The notes: generated from the sequence alone by a model not told the origin. DNA of 64,000 nt from Candidatus Scatovivens sp. (GCA_045646345.1 JAZRKN010000005.1:13594-77593); one strand, 5' to 3'. Shown: positions 18,681 to 60,983, numbered from the stretch's first letter. Translations and numbers: made by a program.

Positions 18681-18729
18681 GCTTTGCAAATACAAAAAAT
18701 CAAAAAGATAGAATAATTGGTTTACATAA

Positions 18730-18758
18730 TTGAAAAAGTATCTTATTCATGGTATAAT
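18730..18758 (+). promoter_or_regulatory. sigma-A type promoter of the vWA cassette
   Basis: TTGAAA-17 nt-(TGg)TATAAT. TTTACATAATT lies at 18721-18731, overlapping the -35 hexamer by two bases. The leader is about 120 nt. Confidence 0.55.
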
Positions 18759-18883
18759 GATAACAAGTAAAGTTATGCTTAAATTCAAAATACACAAGTT
18801 TAGAGGATAATTCCTGGTGTACTAAGCAGACTTTATAGGCACGTTGAAAAATTTATGTTTTGATACAATGGAGGTATCGCTTT

Positions 18884-20047
18884 ATGAAAATGAATGTTAA
18901 GAAAATCACTGTAATCGTTCTGGCTATTCTCTTCGCAATCAACACTGCAGCTACTGCATTCCTTGCACTCTCTGCTAAATCCAATGACAACAACGCAACT
19001 GCTAATGTGGAGGTTATGAATACCTCTGATGGAAAAACTCCAACTGTAACTCCTGAAAAGGAGGAAGCTGACAGAATTCTACTGATTGATGAGTCTGGTT
19101 CTATGAATGTGGACTTCATCATGGGTGTGGATTTTGATGAGACAATCAGATACTCTGACAGCAAAATCACTCAGAATATTTTGGATACTTTAAACGGTGG
19201 AGCTAGCTATGTGGTTTATGTTACAGATATGGAAGCATATCCTATTAGTGATCTGCAGCTTAATGTGGGTAATCATGAAAATGTTTATCTTGCGTTTGCA
19301 ATGACTGAGGAAGTTTCTTATTCTGAAATTGCAAAACACAAAGCTGTTTGGGCAAATGCTCTGAATCAGGAAAATTCTACACTGATTTTTGTGTATCCTG
19401 ATGGTAGTGAAATGGTTGTTTTCGACAATTATTCCGAAGATGTTGCAGAATCTGTGAACATTGAAGATGCTACGAATAACAATCTCTCCATCAAAGTTGA
19501 AGCAAAATCCACAACTGGTGACAGCATCAGTTTTAGAGTTCTGGTTCTGTTCCTTGGCACTATTATTGATTTGTTTTTAATCTTCGGTATCATTATTGCT
19601 GTTCTGATGGATAGAAATGATACTGTAAAAACAGATGGTGGTGTACCTACTGGAATTCAGAAAGCACTGCAGGATACAACAGCAATGGATGGTTCTGCTA
19701 GTGTTGTTGCAGAGTATCAGCAGATGGTTGAGTGGGCTGAGAAAATGGGTGTTTCCGAAGTTTATCGATTTGCGACTGAGGTTAAGAAAATGACTATTGA
19801 GGAAGCAAAGAAGATGAAAGCTGATGGTAATACTCATGGTTGGAAGTGTCTGAAGGAAATGTTTGAGGCTGGAGAACGCAGAATCACCATTGTATCTGAT
19901 ATGGAATTCAACGATGATGAGTCTGTTGTGGCTGGCATCGAATTTGAACATATCAACTTCATTCTTCCTGCTGGGGAAAAGTACAATAAGGAAATCATGG
20001 AGAGGGTATGTAAGATGGCCAAATCCTATAAAGTCGAACGCATCTAA
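18884..20047 (+). CDS. bitopic membrane protein with two vWA/MIDAS-like half-domains (compositionally foreign)
   Basis: GGAGG sits 9 nt before ATG 18884. Signal anchor, LLIDESGSM (DxSxS), central TM helix FRVLVLFLGTIIDLFLIFGIIIAVL, then a second DGSAS ... ITIVSDMEFND. The first 99 nt are about 39% GC, and CTG/ATC codons are used. Confidence 0.6.
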   Translation: MKMNVKKITVIVLAILFAINTAATAFLALSAKSNDNNATANVEVMNTSDGKTPTVTPEKEEADRILLIDESGSMNVDFIMGVDFDETIRYSDSKITQNILDTLNGGASYVVYVTDMEAYPISDLQLNVGNHENVYLAFAMTEEVSYSEIAKHKAVWANALNQENSTLIFVYPDGSEMVVFDNYSEDVAESVNIEDATNNNLSIKVEAKSTTGDSISFRVLVLFLGTIIDLFLIFGIIIAVLMDRNDTVKTDGGVPTGIQKALQDTTAMDGSASVVAEYQQMVEWAEKMGVSEVYRFATEVKKMTIEEAKKMKADGNTHGWKCLKEMFEAGERRITIVSDMEFNDDESVVAGIEFEHINFILPAGEKYNKEIMERVCKMAKSYKVERI

Positions 20048-20124: not shown

Positions 20125-20210
20125 AGATGAAAACTTATTATGTTTCTATTTACTTGCTACGAAAAAAGTGCTATAATGTAGATGTATTAACGAAAAGGAG
20201 AGATAAAAGT

Positions 20211-20408
20211 ATGCTTTATTTAGTATTAGTACCAATAATAATGTTAGCGGCAATTGTAAAATTAGTTTCAGATAGATATAAATTAAAAATATTAAGTACA
20301 ATTTCAAAAGTTGTTATTTTTATAGGAGTAGTATTATTTGTATATTTATATGCAGCTTCAAAAGGATTTGATATTGTACAAATAATTATTAATTTCTTTA
20401 CGTTATAA
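20211..20408 (+). CDS. small two-TM membrane protein
   Basis: AAAGGAGAG RBS before ATG 20211. 65 aa, hydrophobic. Confidence 0.5.
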   Translation: MLYLVLVPIIMLAAIVKLVSDRYKLKILSTISKVVIFIGVVLFVYLYAASKGFDIVQIIINFFTL

Positions 20409-24846: not shown

Positions 24847-24854
24847 ATAAAAAA

Positions 24855-24886
24855 AGATACAGAATTTCTATTCTGTATCTTTTTTT
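24855..24886 (+). terminator. intrinsic terminator after hydA
   Basis: Stem agatacagaat/attctgtatct plus T6. Confidence 0.8.
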
Positions 24887-24890
24887 GTTA

Positions 24891-24921
24891 TGAAAAATCC
24901 CATTGCAAATAGCAATGGGAT
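24891..24921 (-). terminator. intrinsic terminator of the minus-strand cassette
   Basis: Stem atcccattgc/gcaatgggat, with a T-run on the minus strand. Confidence 0.7.
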
Positions 24922-24933
24922 TGAAAAGATGAA

Positions 24934-25179
24934 TTAAAAACCGCTTTGTTGCATGCGCTCTTTTATTTCTTCTTTGCTACAATCGCAAAGGATAGAGTAC
25001 ACTGCAATAGAAGTTTCAGAAGAACTGTTAAGTGCAACATATTTGTGGACATATCTCGTTAAATTATGCCAACATACTTCAGGCGCCCAAAAAGGCCTGT
25101 TAGACTTGAGGTCTGTTGCTAAACACTCCGGTGCTACAGTTAAAATTTGTTCATAAACGGTCTTAAAATCTCTTGCCAT
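24934..25179 (-). CDS. hypothetical 81-aa protein (compositionally foreign)
   Basis: GAGGAG RBS before ATG 25179 (MARDFKTVYEQ...). Hand counts give 34-42% GC. No recognised domain. Confidence 0.55.
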   Translation of the reverse strand: MARDFKTVYEQILTVAPECLATDLKSNRPFWAPEVCWHNLTRYVHKYVALNSSSETSIAVYSILCDCSKEEIKERMQQSGF

Positions 25180-25258
25180 TTTTTCTCCTCGTGCATTTTG
25201 CACTTGCCTGGGTCAATAGTAACATGATGTAACGGAGTAAAAACGTTTCATCAATAAT

Positions 25259-25287
25259 ATTATACCATAATTTACATAAAATGTAAA
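25259..25287 (-). promoter_or_regulatory. sigma-A type promoter containing palindrome TTTACAT-N3-ATGTAAA
   Basis: Minus strand reads TTTACA-TTTTATGTAAATTATGG-TATAAT (17-nt spacer). Confidence 0.6.
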
Positions 25288-25299
25288 TTTAAAGAAGGG

Positions 25300-26852: not shown

Positions 26853-26912
26853 ATTATATTTTACAAAATATGGAAAAAAATATTAATTTATGATAAAATT
26901 TTTTTAAATTTA

Positions 26913-26958: not shown

Positions 26959-27483
26959 ATGAGAGAAGTAAATGAGCCTGGTAATAGCAATCCGGAAGCT
27001 TTTGAAAGACTTATTAATACTGTAAAAGTTAAATTGTATAAAACAGGAATGGCAATTTTAAAAAATGATGACGATGTATGTGATGCTATTCAAGAAACTT
27101 TAATGAGTGCTTATAAAAATTTTAGTAATTTAAAAGAAGTTCAATTTTTTGATACTTGGATTACAAGAATTCTTATTAATAAATGTTATGACATAATTAA
27201 AAAGAATAAAAAAGTTGCTTATTTAAATGAAAAAATGGAAGTAGAAGCTAATGAATCTTATTATGATAGATATAAAGAAGATTCAACAGTTGAAAGAGTT
27301 TTAAGTCAAATAAATCCTGAATTAAAACTTGTTAGTGTTTTATATTATTATGATGAATTCTCAGTTAAAGAAATCTCCGAAATGCTTAACATCCCAGAAG
27401 GAACAGTAAAATCTAGATTAGCAAGAGCGCGAGACAAAATGTATGAGATATTAAAAATGGAAGAAGGTGAACGCATTGGATAA
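26959..27483 (+). CDS. ECF-family RNA polymerase sigma factor
   Basis: Region 2 (DAIQETLMSAYKNF, WITRILINKCYD) and region 4 (VKEISEMLNIPEGTVKSRLARARDKM). Confidence 0.85.
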   Translation: MREVNEPGNSNPEAFERLINTVKVKLYKTGMAILKNDDDVCDAIQETLMSAYKNFSNLKEVQFFDTWITRILINKCYDIIKKNKKVAYLNEKMEVEANESYYDRYKEDSTVERVLSQINPELKLVSVLYYYDEFSVKEISEMLNIPEGTVKSRLARARDKMYEILKMEEGERIG

Positions 27484-29419
27484 TCAAAAAGATTTTTATA
27501 TTAAAAGCAAATTTAAACAAGACGATTTAATTTCAAAAAATGCAGACGAGGTATTTAATAATTTTTTAAGAGGTGAAATAAAAATGGAAGAAGAAAAAGT
27601 AGTAAATATTAATAATACTACAAAAGAGAAAGAATCGAAAAAAACAAATATAAGAAAAATATTATCAATAGCAGCAACTTTGGTTGTAATCTTTTTAGGA
27701 GCAAACGTTTATGCTGCAACACAAGGATATAATAATATATTTTTTATTATAAATAATTTATTTAATCCAACAGAAATTACAGATCCAAATGAAATATTAA
27801 CAGATAGAGATATTATAATCTCATATAGACCGATTGAAGTAAGCAAAGGTTTAAGTATTCAAATTAACAGATTAATAGTAAAAGATAATGAAGCTGTTCT
27901 TTATTTAGATGTAGAAAATGGTGAGTCTAAAGAAGAAATTGATACAATTGCAGTATATGATATAACAGATGGAAAAAAAGAATTAATAGCAAATCATTCA
28001 GCTTTAAGCAAAAAAGAAGGACGTCATACAGAAGAAATTAAATTAACAAAATTTTCAAATAAAACAGAATCAATTCAATTAGATCTACAAGATAAAGAGT
28101 TTAACAAAGTAATTTCTTTTGAAATTAACTTGGATAAAAAAGAAATTAATATATTATCAGCTTCTGAAAAAGAAATGAAAAAAATATCAGAAGTAGAATT
28201 AAAAGAGTTTTTATCAAAAATAGTAAGAATTAATTTCTTTAAAGATAAAGATGCGTTAACTAAATATCATACAGAACAAGAATACAAAGATGAAATTAAA
28301 GTATTATATGCTTTAGAATTATTGGATAAAGAAAAAGCTAGCTTCGAAGAAGTTCATAAAGTAATAAAAGAATTTACAGGAGAAACTTTTGAAGATCCAA
28401 TAAGCTTAGCCAATATAGTAGTTACCAAATATGATGATGGTTATAAATATGTAACTGAAAAAGATATGCATCAAGTTAAAGCATTGTGTTTAGAAGTTTC
28501 TGATATAAAATATTCTAATGGTATATATACAGTAAGTTGTATATATACATATCCAACAGATGAGGATTATAAAAATAATAAAATAGAAGAATTAGATAAA
28601 TTTACAACAACATTTGAATTTACATTAAATGAAAATTATGAATATACAGAATTTTGTGTATTATCTGTAAATGATTTTGTAAGTAGTTTATATGAAGTAA
28701 GTAAAGAAACAGAAGATGATATTGTAGAAATTCCAGACGAAAATGAAGAAAACAATTCTGAAAATAAAGAAGATAATTCAGATGATAAAGAAGTACCAGA
28801 AAACAACAATGAAAATAACAACCAATCAAATTCAAACGAAAATTCTGGAACAATACCAGAGCCGCCAGCAAATACAAATCCATCAGATAGTACTGTTATA
28901 AATCCAGGAAATGTTGATAATTATGCATCAACAATGGTATGGAATGATTTCTTTACACCAGGATTAAGAGGAAAAATGCCAGCTGGATGGAATATAAAAG
29001 AATTTATAACATCATATAAAGGACAAGAAGATGATGGAAAACTTGCTAAATCAGTATCAGGAGTTGCAATAGGAATAAACAAAGAAACAAACGAAATTGT
29101 AAGATCAAATTTAATAATTAATTTTTATATGCCTGAATTTATAGAAGCAGGAAATACATTAGATTATACAAGAATTGTAGCAAACAGATATAACATGGAA
29201 GCTTCAGAAGCAGGATATACAAGTAATGAAGGTATGGATTGGAAAATGGTTGTAGAACCATATAACAATAGAGAATTTTATTGTCATTATGAACCAATGT
29301 ATGGTAGTGCTGAAGGTGTAGGATATGTTGTAGAAATTATTTGTGACAATTATGATAACTATAAAGTAATAAATATAATTAACTGGATATTCGGAAATTT
29401 AAAAGGAGCATCTTTTTAA
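27467..29419 (+). CDS. putative anti-sigma factor, single TM helix with large extracytoplasmic domain
   Basis: Overlaps the end of the sigma gene by 17 nt. Short cytoplasmic N-terminus, TM helix ILSIAATLVVIFLGANVYA, about 560-aa outside part with an N/E/S-rich linker. Confidence 0.55.
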   Translation: MNALDNQKDFYIKSKFKQDDLISKNADEVFNNFLRGEIKMEEEKVVNINNTTKEKESKKTNIRKILSIAATLVVIFLGANVYAATQGYNNIFFIINNLFNPTEITDPNEILTDRDIIISYRPIEVSKGLSIQINRLIVKDNEAVLYLDVENGESKEEIDTIAVYDITDGKKELIANHSALSKKEGRHTEEIKLTKFSNKTESIQLDLQDKEFNKVISFEINLDKKEINILSASEKEMKKISEVELKEFLSKIVRINFFKDKDALTKYHTEQEYKDEIKVLYALELLDKEKASFEEVHKVIKEFTGETFEDPISLANIVVTKYDDGYKYVTEKDMHQVKALCLEVSDIKYSNGIYTVSCIYTYPTDEDYKNNKIEELDKFTTTFEFTLNENYEYTEFCVLSVNDFVSSLYEVSKETEDDIVEIPDENEENNSENKEDNSDDKEVPENNNENNNQSNSNENSGTIPEPPANTNPSDSTVINPGNVDNYASTMVWNDFFTPGLRGKMPAGWNIKEFITSYKGQEDDGKLAKSVSGVAIGINKETNEIVRSNLIINFYMPEFIEAGNTLDYTRIVANRYNMEASEAGYTSNEGMDWKMVVEPYNNREFYCHYEPMYGSAEGVGYVVEIICDNYDNYKVINIINWIFGNLKGASF

Positions 29420-35313: not shown

Positions 35314-35453
35314 TTTTAACAACCTCCTTACAATACTAGGCTAATGCTATTATATCACAGAAATTGAAAATGTAAATAAATTTATTGCTCTAATATTATA
35401 AACTATGATAAAATACAAGCAAATAAACTCAAAAGATAAATAAAGGAGGGACA

Positions 35454-40702: not shown

Positions 40703-40731
40703 AATATAACATAATTTACATAATTTTGCAA
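40703..40731 (-). promoter_or_regulatory. sigma-A type promoter homologous to the one at 25259-25287
   Basis: Minus strand reads TTGCAA-AATTATGTAAATTATGT-TATATT. 14 contiguous spacer nt are identical to the 25.2-kb promoter, in the same register. Confidence 0.6.
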
Positions 40732-48659: not shown

Positions 48660-49079
48660 ATGGTAAAGAAAATATCAATGGTTGTAATAATTTTTGCAAT
48701 GCTAGTTGGAGTGTTAACAATTTTTTCTTGTAGCGCTTATGCTGTTACGGGAGAACAAGTTTTAAACTCTACACAAGCAACAGAATTAGTAGAAATTAAA
48801 GAAACAACAAAAGGAAAATTAGCTGAATATATTGAAAAATATGGCTCAACACCATTTGGAGTAGCAGCTTACGTTTTAAATGTCGTAAGAATTTATAGTA
48901 TTCCATTTTGTTTTGTTGGTATTGCCTTAGGTTCAATATTTCAATATGTATTAGGTATTAGAAAATTGGACGTTAGAGATAGAGGTTTTATGCTTATTAT
49001 CACTTTCGTAACAATTTTATTAATATGCCAAGTATTACCATTAATATTTGCTATAGTAGTAAATGGTTGGAGGGGTTAA
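48660..49079 (+). CDS. signal-peptide protein with two C-terminal TM helices
   Basis: Signal peptide MVKKISMVVIIFAMLVGVLTIFSCSAYA, then a soluble segment, then two hydrophobic helices. Its 3' end is adjacent to the next gene. Confidence 0.5.
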   Translation: MVKKISMVVIIFAMLVGVLTIFSCSAYAVTGEQVLNSTQATELVEIKETTKGKLAEYIEKYGSTPFGVAAYVLNVVRIYSIPFCFVGIALGSIFQYVLGIRKLDVRDRGFMLIITFVTILLICQVLPLIFAIVVNGWRG

Positions 49080-49083
49080 ACAA

Positions 49084-52000
49084 ATGAAAGTTTTATTTGC
49101 GGTTAATAGTGAGAAAATTTCTGAAGCGATTATTAAGAAATATCAAAAAGATTATAAAGAAATTCTTTCTTATAAGAATGTATATTACTTTAACGCAATA
49201 TTAAAAGAGATACAAAAAGATAAAAGTTATGATAGAATAATTATACATGAAGAATTAGAGTCTTTCTCTAATAACAATTATGATGCAATAGATAAATTTA
49301 TCTTTGAAAAACTTGATGATATTAGCGATGAAGCACAAGATATAGATGGAAATGAAACATCTATAATTTTTCTTTGTGCCAATAGACGTACAAAAGGTAG
49401 TTCATTTTTAGTTAAATTATTTGGAATTGGAATTTACAATGCTATTTTAGCTAGTGACCAAAGTGTTGAACAAATATGTAAATTAATTAACAAACCAAAA
49501 CTAAAAAAAGAAGCTAAAATGTATTACCAAATAGATTCTGATGAAGTTAATTATTCTAATAAAAGTTCAGAAGAAGTAAGTGAACTTGAAATTCAAAATA
49601 TATTAACTCACTTCAAAAAATTAGGAAAAAATACAGATAAATTTGCTGATAGCTTTAATAATATAGCTTCACAATACACAGACGATCAATTAAAAATTAT
49701 TGTTAATTGTTTACCAAACAATGTAAAAGTTGTTCTTGAAGATGATTGTAAAAAATATCAAGAACTAATGTCTGGTGAAGGTGGAATAAAAAAAGTAAAT
49801 AGAGGCGAAAGTATAAACAGAGAAGCTAGAAAACAAGCTGGAATAAAAATAGATCTTATAGAAAATAAAATGAATACTAATAAAATGTCTGGACCTATAG
49901 TTATACCATCTTCTGTTAGAACTTCAAAAAATAAAGGACCAGCTCCAGTTAGACCTATGGGTAATAATATAGAAATACCTACAGTAAAATCAGGAGAAGA
50001 ACGAACAAAGAAAATTGTAAAAAAATCTGAATTACAACAAATGAAATCTGGTATAGCACAAGCTAAGCCTGTTAGACAAGAGGGAATTGGTGGACAAAAA
50101 GTTGCGGTTCAACCAAAAACAAATCCAGTAGCTACAGAAAAAACTGTATCAAAAGTGGCTCCAGAAAATAGAGTTGCAAGACCAGTAGCTCCTCAAGTAA
50201 AAAAAGAGCAAGTGCCACCAATAAACTTGAGTAAAACACCAAAAGCTGTTGTTACAGATCCAGCTGAAAAGAAAGGTAGAGGAAGACCAAAAAAAGTCGA
50301 ACCTCAAATTATAGAAGAAGATGAAGATTTAGATGATATCATGTTACCAGGAATGATTGAAGATTTCGAGGATGACGAATTGATATTACCAGAATCTCAA
50401 GCGCCTTCTTTTGAAGAAGATTTATTATCAGACATGGAAGATGATTCTTTAGAAAGTGAAGAAGAATTCTTACCAGGAATGATTGAAGATTCATTAGAAG
50501 AGGACGAAGAATTTTTACCAGGAATGGAAGAAGATTCATTAGAAGAAGATGAAGAATTCTTGCCAGGAATGGAAGAAGATTCATTAGAAGAAGACGAAGA
50601 ATTTTTACCAGGAATGGAAGAAGATTCATTAGAAGAAGATGAAGAGTTTTTACCAGGAATGGAAGAAGATTCATTAGAAGAAGACGAAGAACTATTACCA
50701 GGAATGGAAGAAGATTCATTAGAAGAAGACGAAGAATTTTTACCAGGAATGGAAGAAGATTCATTAGAAGAAGACGAAGAATTTTTACCAGGAATGGAAG
50801 AAGATTCATTAGAAGAAGATGAAGAATTCTTGCCAGGAATGGAAGAAGATTCATTAGAAGAAGACGAAGAACTATTACCAGGAATGGAAGAAGACTCATT
50901 AGAAGAAGATGATGAATTTATTCCAGACATGGAAGATGATTTTGATGATGATTTCCTACCATCTATGGGCGATGATTTTGAAGATTTTGAAGAAGATACA
51001 TTACCTGTAATGGAAGAAGAATTCGAAACAGTTGATGAAACCTTACCAAGTGCTGATGAAGTGATTGAAGAAGTGGAAGAATATACCGAAGAAGTTGCAC
51101 TACCAGGACTTGATGAATTAGATGATTTAGAAGATATTGAAGCGTCTAATGAAACAAGTATAGATGAAATATTACCAGGTGTTGGTGATGATTTTGAAGG
51201 TGAAGATGATGACTTATTAGCAGGATTTGAAGGTGATGATTTTAATGTAGAGCCAGCACAAGCAAATCAAGTAAATAAATCAACAGAAATAGAAAGTATC
51301 AAACCAAAAGTTGATTATTCAATGTCAAGTTTAAATAGTTTATTAACTAAGGATAAGAAGATAGTAACTTTTGTAGGAACAAGTAAAAATGGAACATCAT
51401 TCTTAATTAATACATTAGCAGCATTGTTCGCTTCATTAGGAATAAATACTGCAATTTTAGATATGACAAAAAATAAAAATTCTTATTACATTTATACAAA
51501 TAATGAAGAAGAATTAAGAAATATTGCATATAATTCAATTAGTAAATTACAAAAAGGATTTGCAGAAGGAATAAAAGTTGGTAAAAACTTAAGTATTTAT
51601 ACAGCATTACCAAATGATGGAAAAGATTATTCAGATGCTGAACCAATCTTATCAACATTAGTTCAAAACCATTCATTAATTTTAATAGATTGTGATTTTG
51701 ATACTGATACATCATATTTTGCAAGTTGCCAAGAAATTTATTTAGTACAATCAATGGATATATTAACAATCCAACCACTAACAGCTTTCTTAAGAAAGTT
51801 AAAAACAGAAGGTGGATTAGAACCAGAAAAAGTTAGAGTTGTAATAAATAAAGAATTAAAAGTTAGAAGTTTAACAACAAAAGCTATAATTGCTGGTATG
51901 TCATTTTATAATGATCCATCAATGTCATTTATGACAGAACTATTTAATAAAGATTTAGTTAAAGCTTGTAGTATACCATTTGATGAAAGTGCATATTCTA

Positions 52001-52209
52001 AATATTTAGATGCTATGGTAAATTGTAATGTATCAATAAATGGATATTCAAAACAATTTATGAGCAAATTAAGAAATTTAGGAGATATGGTATATCCATT
52101 AGTTGGTAAATCAACATATGGAGGAACAGCTTCACAAACAAATTATGGAAAAAATAACTTTTCAAGTACGACAAATAAAACATTAAATCAAATGAAGAAA
52201 AAATATTAA
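49084..52209 (+). CDS. giant acidic-repeat protein: receiver-like N-domain, AT-hook, (EFLPGMEEDSLEEDE)x10, degenerate ParA/MinD-like C-domain
   Basis: GGAGGGG RBS before ATG 49084. N-terminal MKVLFAVNSEK...DRIIIHEELES beta-alpha pattern. KKGRGRPKK. C-terminal KKIVTFVGTSKNGTSFLINTLAALFASLGINTAILD ... LILIDCD resembles TadZ/CpaE or MinD, but with a non-canonical P-loop. Confidence 0.6.
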   Translation: MKVLFAVNSEKISEAIIKKYQKDYKEILSYKNVYYFNAILKEIQKDKSYDRIIIHEELESFSNNNYDAIDKFIFEKLDDISDEAQDIDGNETSIIFLCANRRTKGSSFLVKLFGIGIYNAILASDQSVEQICKLINKPKLKKEAKMYYQIDSDEVNYSNKSSEEVSELEIQNILTHFKKLGKNTDKFADSFNNIASQYTDDQLKIIVNCLPNNVKVVLEDDCKKYQELMSGEGGIKKVNRGESINREARKQAGIKIDLIENKMNTNKMSGPIVIPSSVRTSKNKGPAPVRPMGNNIEIPTVKSGEERTKKIVKKSELQQMKSGIAQAKPVRQEGIGGQKVAVQPKTNPVATEKTVSKVAPENRVARPVAPQVKKEQVPPINLSKTPKAVVTDPAEKKGRGRPKKVEPQIIEEDEDLDDIMLPGMIEDFEDDELILPESQAPSFEEDLLSDMEDDSLESEEEFLPGMIEDSLEEDEEFLPGMEEDSLEEDEEFLPGMEEDSLEEDEEFLPGMEEDSLEEDEEFLPGMEEDSLEEDEELLPGMEEDSLEEDEEFLPGMEEDSLEEDEEFLPGMEEDSLEEDEEFLPGMEEDSLEEDEELLPGMEEDSLEEDDEFIPDMEDDFDDDFLPSMGDDFEDFEEDTLPVMEEEFETVDETLPSADEVIEEVEEYTEEVALPGLDELDDLEDIEASNETSIDEILPGVGDDFEGEDDDLLAGFEGDDFNVEPAQANQVNKSTEIESIKPKVDYSMSSLNSLLTKDKKIVTFVGTSKNGTSFLINTLAALFASLGINTAILDMTKNKNSYYIYTNNEEELRNIAYNSISKLQKGFAEGIKVGKNLSIYTALPNDGKDYSDAEPILSTLVQNHSLILIDCDFDTDTSYFASCQEIYLVQSMDILTIQPLTAFLRKLKTEGGLEPEKVRVVINKELKVRSLTTKAIIAGMSFYNDPSMSFMTELFNKDLVKACSIPFDESAYSKYLDAMVNCNVSINGYSKQFMSKLRNLGDMVYPLVGKSTYGGTASQTNYGKNNFSSTTNKTLNQMKKKY
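50461..50910 (+). repeat. ten tandem in-frame 45-bp repeats
   Basis: The (t/g)cca of the LP codons recurs at 50471, 50516, 50561 ... 50876, exactly 45 nt apart. The units differ only by a few synonymous or conservative changes. Confidence 0.95.
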
Positions 52210-54508: not shown

Positions 54509-54627
54509 GTTGCATTTTATTTAATATATGAAAAATAAAGTTTAAGATGTTTTGGTTTATTTATTGAAATTTATGTTAATGTATGATACACTTTTTTTAT
54601 TAGAGAGATAATTAGGAGGATATACAT

Positions 54628-55098
54628 ATGACAAGTTTATTTAGTTATTTACTTACATTTATGGCAGTAATATTCTGGGTTTTTAGAGCGATAGCTACAT
54701 TACTATATCAATTAGAGGTGGATTTCTTTACAACACCTTTAAATGAGACTTATGAAATTATTGTATTATTTGCAACATTACCTTGTTTAATTTTAGTTGT
54801 TAAAAGAAATATTGTAGGAGCCGCAGCATATTTAGGGTTATATGTTGCTTATTTTGGAAATGCTATATATAAAACTATAACAGGAGCTCAAGAATTTGGT
54901 TTTACAATTGCAAATACTACAGATTTGTTAATAACAAGTGTAGGAATATTAATTGCTTTATTGACATTTTTGGATGTTTTATTTAATAAACATAGAACAT
55001 TAGGAAAAGGAAATAAAAAAGGAGATTGGTTTTATACAAACGAAGCATTTGATAGAGAATTTGACGAAAGAGCTGATAGAAATCAATATAAAATTTAA
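54628..55098 (+). CDS. four-TM membrane protein, hypothetical
   Basis: AGGAGG RBS. Hydrophobic helices and a charged C-terminal tail. Confidence 0.5.
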   Translation: MTSLFSYLLTFMAVIFWVFRAIATLLYQLEVDFFTTPLNETYEIIVLFATLPCLILVVKRNIVGAAAYLGLYVAYFGNAIYKTITGAQEFGFTIANTTDLLITSVGILIALLTFLDVLFNKHRTLGKGNKKGDWFYTNEAFDREFDERADRNQYKI

Positions 55099-57835: not shown

Positions 57836-57864
57836 AGTATAACATAGTTGACCATAAAAGTCAA
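57836..57864 (-). promoter_or_regulatory. sigma-A type promoter, gives a leader of about 220 nt
   Basis: Minus strand reads TTGACT-17 nt-TATACT. Confidence 0.5.
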
Positions 57865-57900
57865 ATTATGTAAATGTTTGCGGAGCTATCAATAAAAAGA

Positions 57901-57929
57901 TTTACATTTTATGTAAACAGTGATAGAAT
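57901..57929 (+). promoter_or_regulatory. sigma-A type promoter containing palindrome TTTACAT-TTT-ATGTAAA
   Basis: TTTACA-TTTTATGTAAACAGTGA-TAGAAT. Its first 17 nt are identical to the minus-strand promoter at 25271-25287. Confidence 0.6.
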
Positions 57930-58020
57930 ATAATTAAGATACAAAATATAGCTGCCTTAAATGTACGAAATTCGCATTAAGAGGTTTGCATGCCTCGTGA
58001 TATAATTATCGGAGGAAAAA

Positions 58021-58338
58021 ATGATAGAAGATAAGATATTAAACATTATTATAGTTTTATTTGTGATTTGTGCTTTTTTGGAAATATACAGGGTTAAATC
58101 CTTGTGCTCTGATTATCAGAAGGCAAAAATAAAAGAAGAAACGATATTAATCATTATGTTTATTTTAATGTTGATTTGTTTTGCTTTGGCAATAATTCTA
58201 CTTTTAAATGTCATTTCAGGTATTGATATCGGATACTTGTATGATTCCAATGTTATTTCAAAAAATAATGCTTCAAATCCAAATTTTGTAGCTTATTATG
58301 ATCCGGCTACAAAAACGGTTAGGTATCGAGCACAATAA
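58021..58338 (+). CDS. two-TM small membrane protein, hypothetical
   Basis: GGAGG RBS. 105 aa. Two hydrophobic helices, then a polar tail. Confidence 0.5.
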   Translation: MIEDKILNIIIVLFVICAFLEIYRVKSLCSDYQKAKIKEETILIIMFILMLICFALAIILLLNVISGIDIGYLYDSNVISKNNASNPNFVAYYDPATKTVRYRAQ

Positions 58339-58370
58339 AAATTAAACTCTATGCAGCTATGTATATCGTG

Positions 58371-58403
58371 AGCTGAAGGGGCTAACTCTTCAGTTCTTTT
58401 TTT
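58371..58403 (+). terminator. intrinsic terminator
   Basis: Stem ctgaag/cttcag with a 9-nt loop, followed by a T-run. Confidence 0.65.
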
Positions 58404-58537
58404 GTAAAATTATTTGAAAATTTGCTGTGCAAAATTATGTGCAGATTCGTTAAAAATGAAAATGACTGAAAAACAATAAAAAATGAGTAAAGTCTTAAAC
58501 TTCACTCATATCAATAAATATAGCAGTTTGGAAAATA

Positions 58538-58571
58538 ATAAAAAAAGATGAAAAAGGTTAACTTTTTCATC
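58538..58571 (-). terminator. intrinsic terminator after the tRNA
   Basis: Stem gatgaaaaag/ctttttcatc, with T7 on the minus strand. Confidence 0.75.
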
Positions 58572-58576
58572 TTCTA

Positions 58577-58651
58577 TGGTGACCCCTACGGGAATCGAAC
58601 CCATGATTCCACCTTGAGAGGGTGGCGTCTTAGCCGCTTGACCAAGGGGCC
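58577..58651 (-). tRNA. tRNA-Glu (anticodon CUC), CCA encoded
   Basis: Reverse complement is GGCCCCTTGGTCAAGCGGCTAAGACGCCACCCTCTCAAGGTGGAATCATGGGTTCGATTCCCGTAGGGGTCACCA. Acceptor stem GGCCCCT/AGGGGTC, anticodon stem CCACC/GGTGG with loop CT-CTC-AA, T-loop TTCGATT. Confidence 0.9.
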
Positions 58652-60040: not shown

Positions 60041-60496
60041 ATGGCTAACAATTTGGATATAGAGATAAAAATTGATGAAAATTATAAAGCTCCCAAAATA
60101 GTTGTTTATACAAGTGAAATAAATGATGATTTAACAAAAATTATAAATAAACTAAAATTAGCTGAAGAAGAAAAAATAATTGGATTCAAAGATGACGAAG
60201 CTTATATAATGGATTTTTCAAAAATTGAACTTATATATACGGAAAATAAAAAGATTTTTGCAAGAATGGAAAATGGTTTTTCATATCAGATAAAAAGAAG
60301 AATTTTTGAATTAGAAGAAAGTTTAATTGATTTTAATTTTGTTAGAATATCTAACTCCGAAATAGTAAATTTTAAAAAAGTTTTAAGTATTGATTTTAAA
60401 TTAACGGGAACGATGATGTTAAAATTAAAAAGTGGAAATAATACGTTTGTTTCAAGAAGATATGTAAAGAAAATCAAAGAATACTTAGGCTTGTAA
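60041..60496 (+). CDS. stand-alone LytTR-domain DNA-binding protein
   Basis: C-terminal FVRISNSEIVNFKKV...FVSRRYVKKIKE LytTR pattern. No receiver domain. Confidence 0.75.
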   Translation: MANNLDIEIKIDENYKAPKIVVYTSEINDDLTKIINKLKLAEEEKIIGFKDDEAYIMDFSKIELIYTENKKIFARMENGFSYQIKRRIFELEESLIDFNFVRISNSEIVNFKKVLSIDFKLTGTMMLKLKSGNNTFVSRRYVKKIKEYLGL

Positions 60497-60506
60497 GGAG
60501 GTTATT

Positions 60507-60983
60507 ATGAAAGAAAAAGTGGAACGTTTTTGTGATAGTTTTAAAAATGGTGTTTTCTTATGGCTTGTATCTTATTTTTTATTATATGCTGTAGGGGTAC
60601 ATATAGGAGATAACTCATTATATAATGCAGAAATAATGAAATTATTAGATGTAAAAAATTTTTTAACACAAGTTATAATTGTTGGTGTTACATATATTGC
60701 TTTAGATTTGGCATTTTCAAAATATTTTAATAATATTGTAGAAGTAGTTAGTTTAAATGTTTCTTCTAAGAAGAAAGTTTTAAAAGATGTTATAGCAATA
60801 ATTGTAATCTTATTAATAATACTTCCAACAATTGAATATATAAAAGATAACAATATTGTAAATAAAGCAATAATGAAATTAATGATAGGATTAATTATTT
60901 TTAAAACAATGATATTTTGTATGGTACAAACAGTAAAAACAGATATATATAATAAGAAGTTGCAAGAGAAAAATAAAGAATAA
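60507..60983 (+). CDS. four-TM membrane protein (DUF3021-like partner of LytTR)
   Basis: Starts 10 nt after the LytTR gene. Four hydrophobic helices. Confidence 0.55.
   Translation: MKEKVERFCDSFKNGVFLWLVSYFLLYAVGVHIGDNSLYNAEIMKLLDVKNFLTQVIIVGVTYIALDLAFSKYFNNIVEVVSLNVSSKKKVLKDVIAIIVILLIILPTIEYIKDNNIVNKAIMKLMIGLIIFKTMIFCMVQTVKTDIYNKKLQEKNKE

Follow-up and report, generated by a model that had tools for sequence, protein, structure and literature searches.

Repressor operators that lie in the spacer between the -35 and -10 hexamers, such as those of Fur/PerR, CI/Cro, TetR and MarR, are short palindromes or pseudo-palindromes placed inside the footprint of RNA polymerase. The sites of LytTR regulators (AgrA-type) consist of two 9-bp direct repeats 12-13 bp apart and are located upstream of the -35, and phage morons and other single-gene cassettes are self-contained units of promoter, leader, ORF and terminator. 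Published consensus sequences include TACA-N2-TGTA for CopY/BlaI (PMC7253601), ATGT-N8-ACAT for PadR (PMC5728393) and, for AbrB, an old consensus WAWWTTTWCAAAAAAW together with TGGNA pairs (PMC3025583). The dif site of B. subtilis reads ACTTCCTAGAATATATATTATGTAAACT (PMC4845504) and the dif sites of many proteobacteria have TTATGTAAA.. or TTATGTTAA.. as their end (PMC2731167).

The window analysed here is a stretch of 64,000 nucleotides from Candidatus Scatovivens sp., in which a sequence-only reading had pointed out the same palindromic 17-mer at two distant loci. This was confirmed exactly: the minus strand at 25271-25287 (site 1) and the plus strand at 57901-57917 (site 2) both read TTTACATTTTATGTAAA, letter for letter, and the identity of the two sites in fact extends to 18 nt (ATTTACATTTTATGTAAA). 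The conserved unit within this sequence is the 9-mer TTATGTAAA, which is part of a 9-10-mer pseudo-palindrome, TTTAYRTAAA (TTTA-YR-TAAA), referred to below as the element.

Like the spacer operators of known repressors, the element is a short pseudo-palindrome inside the polymerase footprint that recurs at dispersed, unrelated genes and is kept by orthologous promoters, but unlike them it is only 9-10 bp long. Operator families were compared by eye with consensus sequences, some of them quoted in papers, and by this comparison the spacing or orientation did not fit CopY/BlaI, PadR, OhrR/MarR, WalR, PhoP, Fur/PerR, Rex, CodY or Spo0A, nor was there a fit to SigD/E/F/G/H/K promoters or to a TcdR-type -35. 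With respect to the CopY/BlaI/MecI operator, TACA and TGTA are 5 nt apart here, and with respect to PadR the half-sites face the opposite way (ACAT-N3-ATGT) and the sites contain no ATGT-N8-ACAT. The resemblance to a LytTR site (TATGTTAAT versus TACGTTAAT) did not extend to the arrangement of the repeats, as there is mostly a single copy per promoter and 43 nt separate the two direct copies at site 2.

The element has the core of the XerD-binding arm in common with dif, but dif is one site at the terminus whereas here there are many sites and they are in promoter register. Compared with the complete 28-bp dif/XerCD site (11-bp XerC arm, 6-bp centre, 11-bp XerD arm), only the XerD-arm core is present, and none of the sites in the window has the ..ATAA/..AGAA that is required at -10 to -7. 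AbrB sites are also AT-rich and overlap the promoters of many non-essential genes. This likeness is weak (TTTACATAA matches TTTWCAAAA at 8/9 positions), AbrB recognizes degenerate sequences, in contrast to the exact 9-mer conserved here, there are no TGGNA pairs, and no abrB-like gene was found in the Scatovivens-like related loci examined. Sites 1 and 2 resemble phage morons in belonging to self-contained promoter-leader-ORF-terminator units that are strain- or species-specific, inserted between housekeeping genes and raised in GC3; unlike morons, these units are chromosomal and outside a prophage, and some of the motif-bearing genes belong to the core gene set of the genus.

Two promoters with an identical 17-mer and the word they share

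The coordinates of the promoters and of the units that they serve are given in Table 1. As had been proposed, the 17-mer provides the -35 and the first 11 spacer nucleotides of a promoter with a 17-nt spacer at both sites, and both promoters are directed toward small ORFs (81 and 105 aa), each with a ribosome-binding site and a terminator. In a consensus scan for sigma-70-type promoters, site 1 scored 11/12 (TTTACA-17-TATAAT with TG) and site 2 scored 10/12 (TTTACA-17-TAGAAT with TG). The hexamers, 17±1 spacer and TG at -15/-14 of sigma-A/sigma-70 extended -10 promoters were found at both sites and likewise at a third (40703-40731) and at a promoter at 54.57 kb. From this consensus anatomy, the two 17-base palindromes are predicted to be parts of real and strong promoters. 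The palindrome around site 1 locally has a 9-3-9 form (25269-25289), and the 17-mer at this site was unaltered in six conspecific metagenome contigs, with at most five changes in the adjoining 12 nt upstream. The one metatranscriptome run contained contigs of relatives only (90-95% identity), which yield no read or transcript starts. Two other functions of the palindrome were discarded: an antisense promoter using the TTTACA of the opposite strand would have no -10 at a usable distance, and the 7-bp stem, which has a single G-C pair, was judged too weak to terminate ylbJ.

Table 1. Features of the window with their coordinates, and the forms of the promoter found upstream of orthologues of the 105-aa gene
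Feature	Position	Strand	Description
Site 1 promoter	25259..25288	-	-35 TTTACA 25287-25282; TG-extended -10 TATAAT 25264-25259
9-mer in site 1 spacer	25279-25271	-	TTTTATGTAAATTATGG, contains TTATGTAAA at this position
Site 1 transcription unit	24896..25252	-	leader ~73 nt, 81-aa orphan ORF 25179-24934, terminator hairpin 24922-24896
Site 2 promoter	57900..57929	+	-35 TTTACA 57901-57906; TG-extended -10 TAGAAT 57924-57929
9-mer in site 2 spacer	57909-57917	+	TTTTATGTAAACAGTGA, contains TTATGTAAA at this position
Site 2 transcription unit	57936..58396	+	leader ~85 nt, 105-aa membrane ORF 58021-58338, terminator 58370-58396
Third promoter	40703..40731	-	TTGCAA / AATTATGTAAATTATGT / TATATT; serves 63-aa gene 40663-40475 downstream of pflA
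Fourth promoter	54564..54592	+	TTGAAA / TTTATGTTAATGTATGA / TACACT; serves 156-aa membrane gene 54628-55098
9-mer copy upstream of a -35	57866..57874	-	TTTACATAA on minus strand, directly upstream of -35 TTGACT 57864-57859
9-mer copy upstream of a -35	18721..18758	+	TTTACATAA 18721-18729, then TTGAAA-17-TATAAT 18730-18758; directly upstream of -35
tRNA-Glu(CTC)	58577..58651	-	intact; right-hand landmark of variable segment
105-aa orthologue promoter			ATTTACT AT TTATGTAAA TTGTGA TATAAT
105-aa orthologue promoter			ATTTACA GC TTATGTAAA CTGTGA TATAAT
105-aa orthologue promoter			GTTTACT TT TTATGTAAA TTGTGA TATAAT
105-aa orthologue promoter (2/5 of this form)			ATTTACA AT TTATGTAAA CTGTGG TATAAT

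The sequence-only reading had also held that an exact 17-nt match is far below chance expectation. When the tandem-repeat gene was masked, 18 independent exact repeats of at least 17 nt were found in the window as compared to a simulated expectation of 3.5-6.6 (Markov order 1-5). Long exact repeats are thus common in the window and the argument from base composition fails. Similarly, the palindrome pattern with up to two mismatches had four matches in the window where 2.8 were expected. An exact 17-mer or a tidy palindrome is therefore weak evidence alone in DNA of 28% GC, and the signal emerged only through composition-matched controls and orthologous promoters.

What did exceed chance was the 9-mer TTATGTAAA that is common to both sites in a fixed promoter register. 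It has five exact copies in the window, all of which are intergenic (intergenic sequence makes up 10.6% of the window) and located at a promoter. Three of the five (site 1, site 2 and the copy at 40731-40703) occupy the same register of TG-extended promoters, and the remaining two read TTTACATAA and lie directly upstream of a -35 (18721-18729 and 57866-57874). The promoter at 18730-18758 serves a 395-aa gene (18860-20047) and a small membrane gene (20127-20408), and the TTGACT promoter is a divergent one for a 243-aa gene (57637-56906). The -35 of this latter gene also lies within a second palindrome, TTGAC-N7-GTCAA (57847-57863). The spacer of the fourth promoter holds a one-mismatch variant, TTATGTTAA.

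As a control, all 630 9-mers of the same composition were counted over 1.24 Mb (the window and about 66 related loci). The total count of the 9-mer was ordinary (93, rank 205 of 630), its intergenic count was 53 (rank 3, median 12), and 15 copies were followed by a TG-extended -10 at an offset of 5-7 (rank 1, median 0); the runners-up in this last test were one-nucleotide shifts of the same 9-mer. TTTAYRTAAA was by these measures enriched in intergenic and promoter positions relative to composition-matched words. Among 85 occurrences for which the offset to a -10-like hexamer was determined, 10 were at 6 and 4-5 each at 5 and 7, most other offsets having 0-3. We also grouped promoters with a 17-nt spacer and TG by downstream similarity into 122 clusters, and the sole recurrent in-register spacer 8-mers that were not anchored on the TG came from ATTTTATGTAAA, two of the clusters behind this result being one orthologous group. 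The spacers of this lineage are in general T-rich and then A-rich, which raises the odds of such a word but does not account for the G or for the exact conservation of the 9-mer.

Orthologous promoters and the genes served

The comparative set, about 66 related genomes with about 1.24 Mb in total, was taken from the loci around Mfd, RbgA and the 105-aa gene. Mfd was 95% identical to that of ruminant MAGs and 87-88% identical to that of named Ca. Scatovivens MAGs, by which the source is an uncultured member of the gut Clostridia near Candidatus Scatovivens, and the DNA runs that contained the region were bovine, pig and other gut metagenomes. The 7-3-7 inverted repeat, which had been interpreted as the operator of a dimeric repressor, was not borne out by this comparison with related genomes: no perfect TTTACAT-N3-ATGTAAA was present in the 1.24 Mb from about 66 related loci. 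In the five orthologous promoters of the 105-aa gene the left arm read TTTACTA, TTTACAG, TTTACTT or TTTACAA and the centre also varied, while the right arm, TTATGTAAA, was invariant; in L032 the arms were spaced as 6-4-6.

TTTACA is a common -35 variant in the lineage, present in 13/122 promoter clusters, and it was not significantly enriched in the motif promoters (3/11 versus 13/122; rough p about 0.1). The 17-mer would then be a composite in which this -35 variant, plus a T, is joined to the conserved 9-10-bp element. Sites 1 and 2 would be identical over 18 nt because the element and the same -35 variant are combined in each, and the look of an inverted repeat would arise because TTTACA(T) is a 7/9 reverse copy of the element. 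TTTACA(T) may contribute a second, weak half-site, with a left arm that would not be maintained by selection. A left-arm half only, without TTATGTAAA, was observed in the promoter of a gene for a DUF4364 (PadR-like winged-helix) protein at 35349-35376 on the minus strand (TTTACATTTTCAATTTCTGTGA-TATAAT), which has ATTTACATTTT in common with sites 1 and 2 and is kept in L007, L009, L013 and L022.

The 9-mer itself was retained in orthologous promoters of several genes. In the five orthologues of the 105-aa gene (L214-L218, 67-86% amino acid identity) the bases of the spacer flanking the invariant 9-mer vary. For the 63-aa gene, 5/6 orthologous promoters, among them L009 with one change (TTATGTTAA), retain the 9-mer in the same register, although the -35 boxes (TTGCAA, TTGTAA, TTGAAA) and the leaders differ. 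Upstream of the 243-aa gene, TTTACATAAT-TTGACT was retained in 3/3 cases (window, L087 and L088); a metagenome scan with the 243-aa protein returned a single conspecific locus.

Other orthologous groups showed turnover. The promoter of the 156-aa membrane gene has TTATGTTAA in the window and in L088, TTATGTAAA in L090 and the inverted TTTACATAA at the same place in L091, and no element was found in L089 and L092. Given the inversion in L091, the element is read as the pseudo-palindrome TTTA-YR-TAAA. In at least 10 related species, the promoter of the orthologue of the small membrane gene at 20127-20408 has TTTACATAA as its -35 (TTTACA+TAA), and in the window the 9-mer is instead located just upstream of a new -35. 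For a 291-aa gene, L039 and L085 carry the element within the spacer, and L060 carries it reversed and upstream of the -35. The element is thus conserved in orthologous promoters, as a site for a trans-acting factor would be, and it tolerates shifts of ±1 as well as inversion.

None of the downstream proteins tested had a Pfam family. The 81-aa protein of site 1 had no Pfam or NCBIfam family, and homologues of it were found nowhere but in near-identical contigs. Its gene lies in the convergent gap between hndD (Fe-hydrogenase) and ylbJ (sporulation) at 24847-25299, which is a hot spot for insertion: in relatives (L007-L056) the gap is either empty (40-60 nt) or filled with 0.3-1.2 kb of small, unrelated genes that each have a strong promoter. 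The 63-aa product, encoded by the target that is conserved best, was considered as an autoregulator and rejected, its confident beta-alpha-beta-beta model (pLDDT 84) having no match to a DNA-binding fold; it had no sequence match in the PDB.

A unit of about 0.7 kb (57875-58576), composed of promoter, leader, ORF and terminator, adjoins the tRNA-Glu(CTC) gene and has site 2 as its 5' edge. The 105-aa protein had no Pfam or NCBIfam family. In the conspecific L087 (96% identity over 2 kb) the homology stops inside the palindrome and the unit is absent, and L088 is also without the entire unit. In L214-L217 the unit lies between direct repeats of about 85 nt, each consisting of a terminator and the 3' part of tRNA-Glu. 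No integrase was found near the unit. The features of a mobile promoter-gene cassette were accordingly observed for site 2 only; site 1 varies in presence or absence among species and has no flanking repeats. The 105-aa gene of the window lies between the two copies of an imperfect 27-nt direct repeat (57860-57886 / 58404-58430, 74%). The 85-nt leader (57936-58020, plus strand) is almost invariant though the orthologous proteins are only 67-86% identical, and it could be folded as two mutually exclusive hairpins (GAGG...CCUC or CCUC...GGAGG), the second of which would mask the ribosome-binding site. No Rfam family matched this leader, which is a candidate cis-regulatory RNA.

GC3 was 0.32 for the site 1 gene, 0.25 for the site 2 gene, 0.22-0.41 for the 63-aa family, 0.35 for the 395-aa gene and 0.40-0.63 for three further accessory genes, as compared to about 0.10-0.15 for core genes, with about 0.13 as the core value set against the site 1 gene. 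It was well above the locus median in about 8/13 independent groups and ordinary for the membrane genes among the motif-bearing set. The genes that the element would control are mostly those for small proteins without a known family, many of them accessory and with raised GC3.

What the element might be

We lean towards the reading that TTTAYRTAAA is the putative site of a clade-conserved, trans-acting DNA-binding protein in a subclass of near-consensus promoters. Within the spacer the element occupies the half nearer the -35, at about -31 to -22, and it defines a subclass of TG-extended sigma-A-type promoters in Candidatus Scatovivens-like gut Clostridia. Because the site falls within the footprint of RNA polymerase or abuts it, the candidate binding protein would most likely be a repressor that blocks otherwise strong promoters. 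We infer protein binding and repression from the sequences; what was observed directly is how the promoters are built, that the 9-mer is enriched and conserved in orthologues, and that it tolerates changes in position and orientation. Since the element stays with the promoter yet changes in position and orientation, a protein site is likelier than a polymerase contact. Several points speak against a regulator: most instances are within ±1 nt of one register, which would fit a promoter-intrinsic role too; the element conforms to the T-rich-then-A-rich spacer profile of the lineage; 9-10 bp is short for a typical dimeric regulator; and phage spacers carry the motif in several registers and both orientations, at only about twice the scrambled control.

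Rather unlikely in our view, though the strongest competitor to a protein site, is an element intrinsic to the promoter, in which TTTAYRTAAA is read by or shaped for RNA polymerase and tunes promoter strength without a dedicated regulator, for example through a bendable YR step between T- and A-tracts in the spacer. Such a role agrees with the spacer profile and with the setting of the element, as the promoters that carry it are always near-consensus and TG-extended and its offset from the -10 is preferentially 6 (±1); the same arrangement is moreover found in bona fide phage promoters on contigs of 27-54% GC, with the exact 17-mer in L111. Against this, the element is in just a few percent of strong promoters, what is conserved is an exact 9-mer and not a degenerate structural pattern, and within orthologous groups the element may be inverted, be the -35 itself or lie upstream of it. 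The phage counts show no preference for a register or an orientation: the strict 21-mer had no matches in the phage collection, and looser patterns gave 10 unique promoters in register 0, 7 for the reverse complement, 7 at +1, 8 at -1 and 4 for the scrambled pattern, which is neutral and roughly as the T-then-A spacer profile predicts. L111 is an IMG/VR viral contig of 32% GC with the exact TTTACATTTTATGTAAA in the same arrangement at minus-strand offset 1921, followed by CGATGG TATAAT, and L097 has TTTACATATTATGTAAA. Pure chance, by which two strong AT-rich promoters would share 17-18 nt in a genome of 28% GC, is already disfavoured and we consider it improbable: long repeats are frequent (18 real versus 3.5-6.6 simulated), the palindrome with up to two mismatches is at chance level and TTTACA is a frequent -35 variant, but the ranks among composition-matched words (third intergenic, first promoter-spacer, of 630), the in-register recurrence over promoter clusters grouped by downstream similarity and the conservation in orthologous promoters all argue against it.

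Common descent, with the 18-mer as a remnant of the 5' end of a moved cassette and not a selected binding site, deserves about as little credence as coincidence. Site 2 is the exact left edge of the homology between the window cassette and its orthologues, the cassette is missing from the conspecific L087 and from L088 and in L214-L217 has direct repeats of about 85 nt on either side, and the orphan gene of site 1 is in a gap with different inserts in each species. Yet the likeness of sites 1 and 2 ends at the 18-mer and generic -10 features, there are no repeats around site 1, and the 9-mer is also conserved at the core, vertically inherited 63-aa, 156-aa and small-membrane genes, so that copying of a module accounts for the inheritance of site 2 and not for the core-gene instances. 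Highly improbable, finally, is a role for the sites as stand-alone XerD-type half-sites, in cassette recombination or in organising the chromosome. TTATGTAAA and the variant TTATGTTAA, both of which occur here, read the same as the inner part of the dif arm to which XerD binds; two homology breakpoints of the site 2 cassette coincide with copies of the motif; and the existence of XerD-only sites (XDS) in B. subtilis is cited in PMC11894783. There is, however, no site with a XerC-type arm and a 6-bp central region, the XerC-like stretch of site 1 varies among conspecifics, the sites hold their register with the -35 and -10 elements, and no GC skew switch was found in the window.

The suggestion of either a dispersed regulon or a copied promoter module stood in part. 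There is a common cis-element, the promoters that carry it are dispersed, and the site 2 promoter travels with its gene as a module; what did not hold was the 7-3-7 repeat as the unit. Under the favoured reading of a protein site, we raise as a tentative and rather doubtful extension that there might be an undescribed global regulon, in which one clade-conserved protein acting at TTTA(TG/CA)TAAA silences moron-like genes and controls a few core small membrane proteins. Its sites would be inside or beside the -35/spacer of consensus-strength promoters, and the pool under its common control would be made up of single-gene cassettes, orphan or accessory, that are small, fast-evolving and GC3-rich. 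In a bolder variant, proposed because the site equals the XerD arm of dif, the binder may be XerD or a XerD-like protein.

If the element is the site of a regulator, it would give a handle on gene control across a genus of uncultured gut bacteria. It would also mark co-regulated dark-matter genes that have no Pfam family, many of them strain-specific and with oddly GC-rich codons, and a 30-mer carrying TTTATGTAAA would be a concrete bait with which the protein could be recovered.

Other features of the window

A stand-alone LytTR DNA-binding protein (151 aa) and then a 158-aa membrane protein are encoded at 60041-60983, in a layout as in the LytTR regulatory systems HdrRM/BrsRM, and no copy of the motif was found upstream of this pair. 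At 26959-29419, the gene for an ECF-type sigma factor (174 aa) and the start of a gene for a 650-aa membrane protein overlap; the membrane protein has no family and is probably the anti-sigma factor of this sigma factor. A copy of the palindrome with two mismatches is located upstream of the sigma factor gene (26860-26876) and is within chance expectation. The ORF at 49063-52209 encodes a product of 1048 aa without a family, and at 50344-50960 it contains a 45-nt unit in nine or more tandem copies, each encoding 15 acidic residues.
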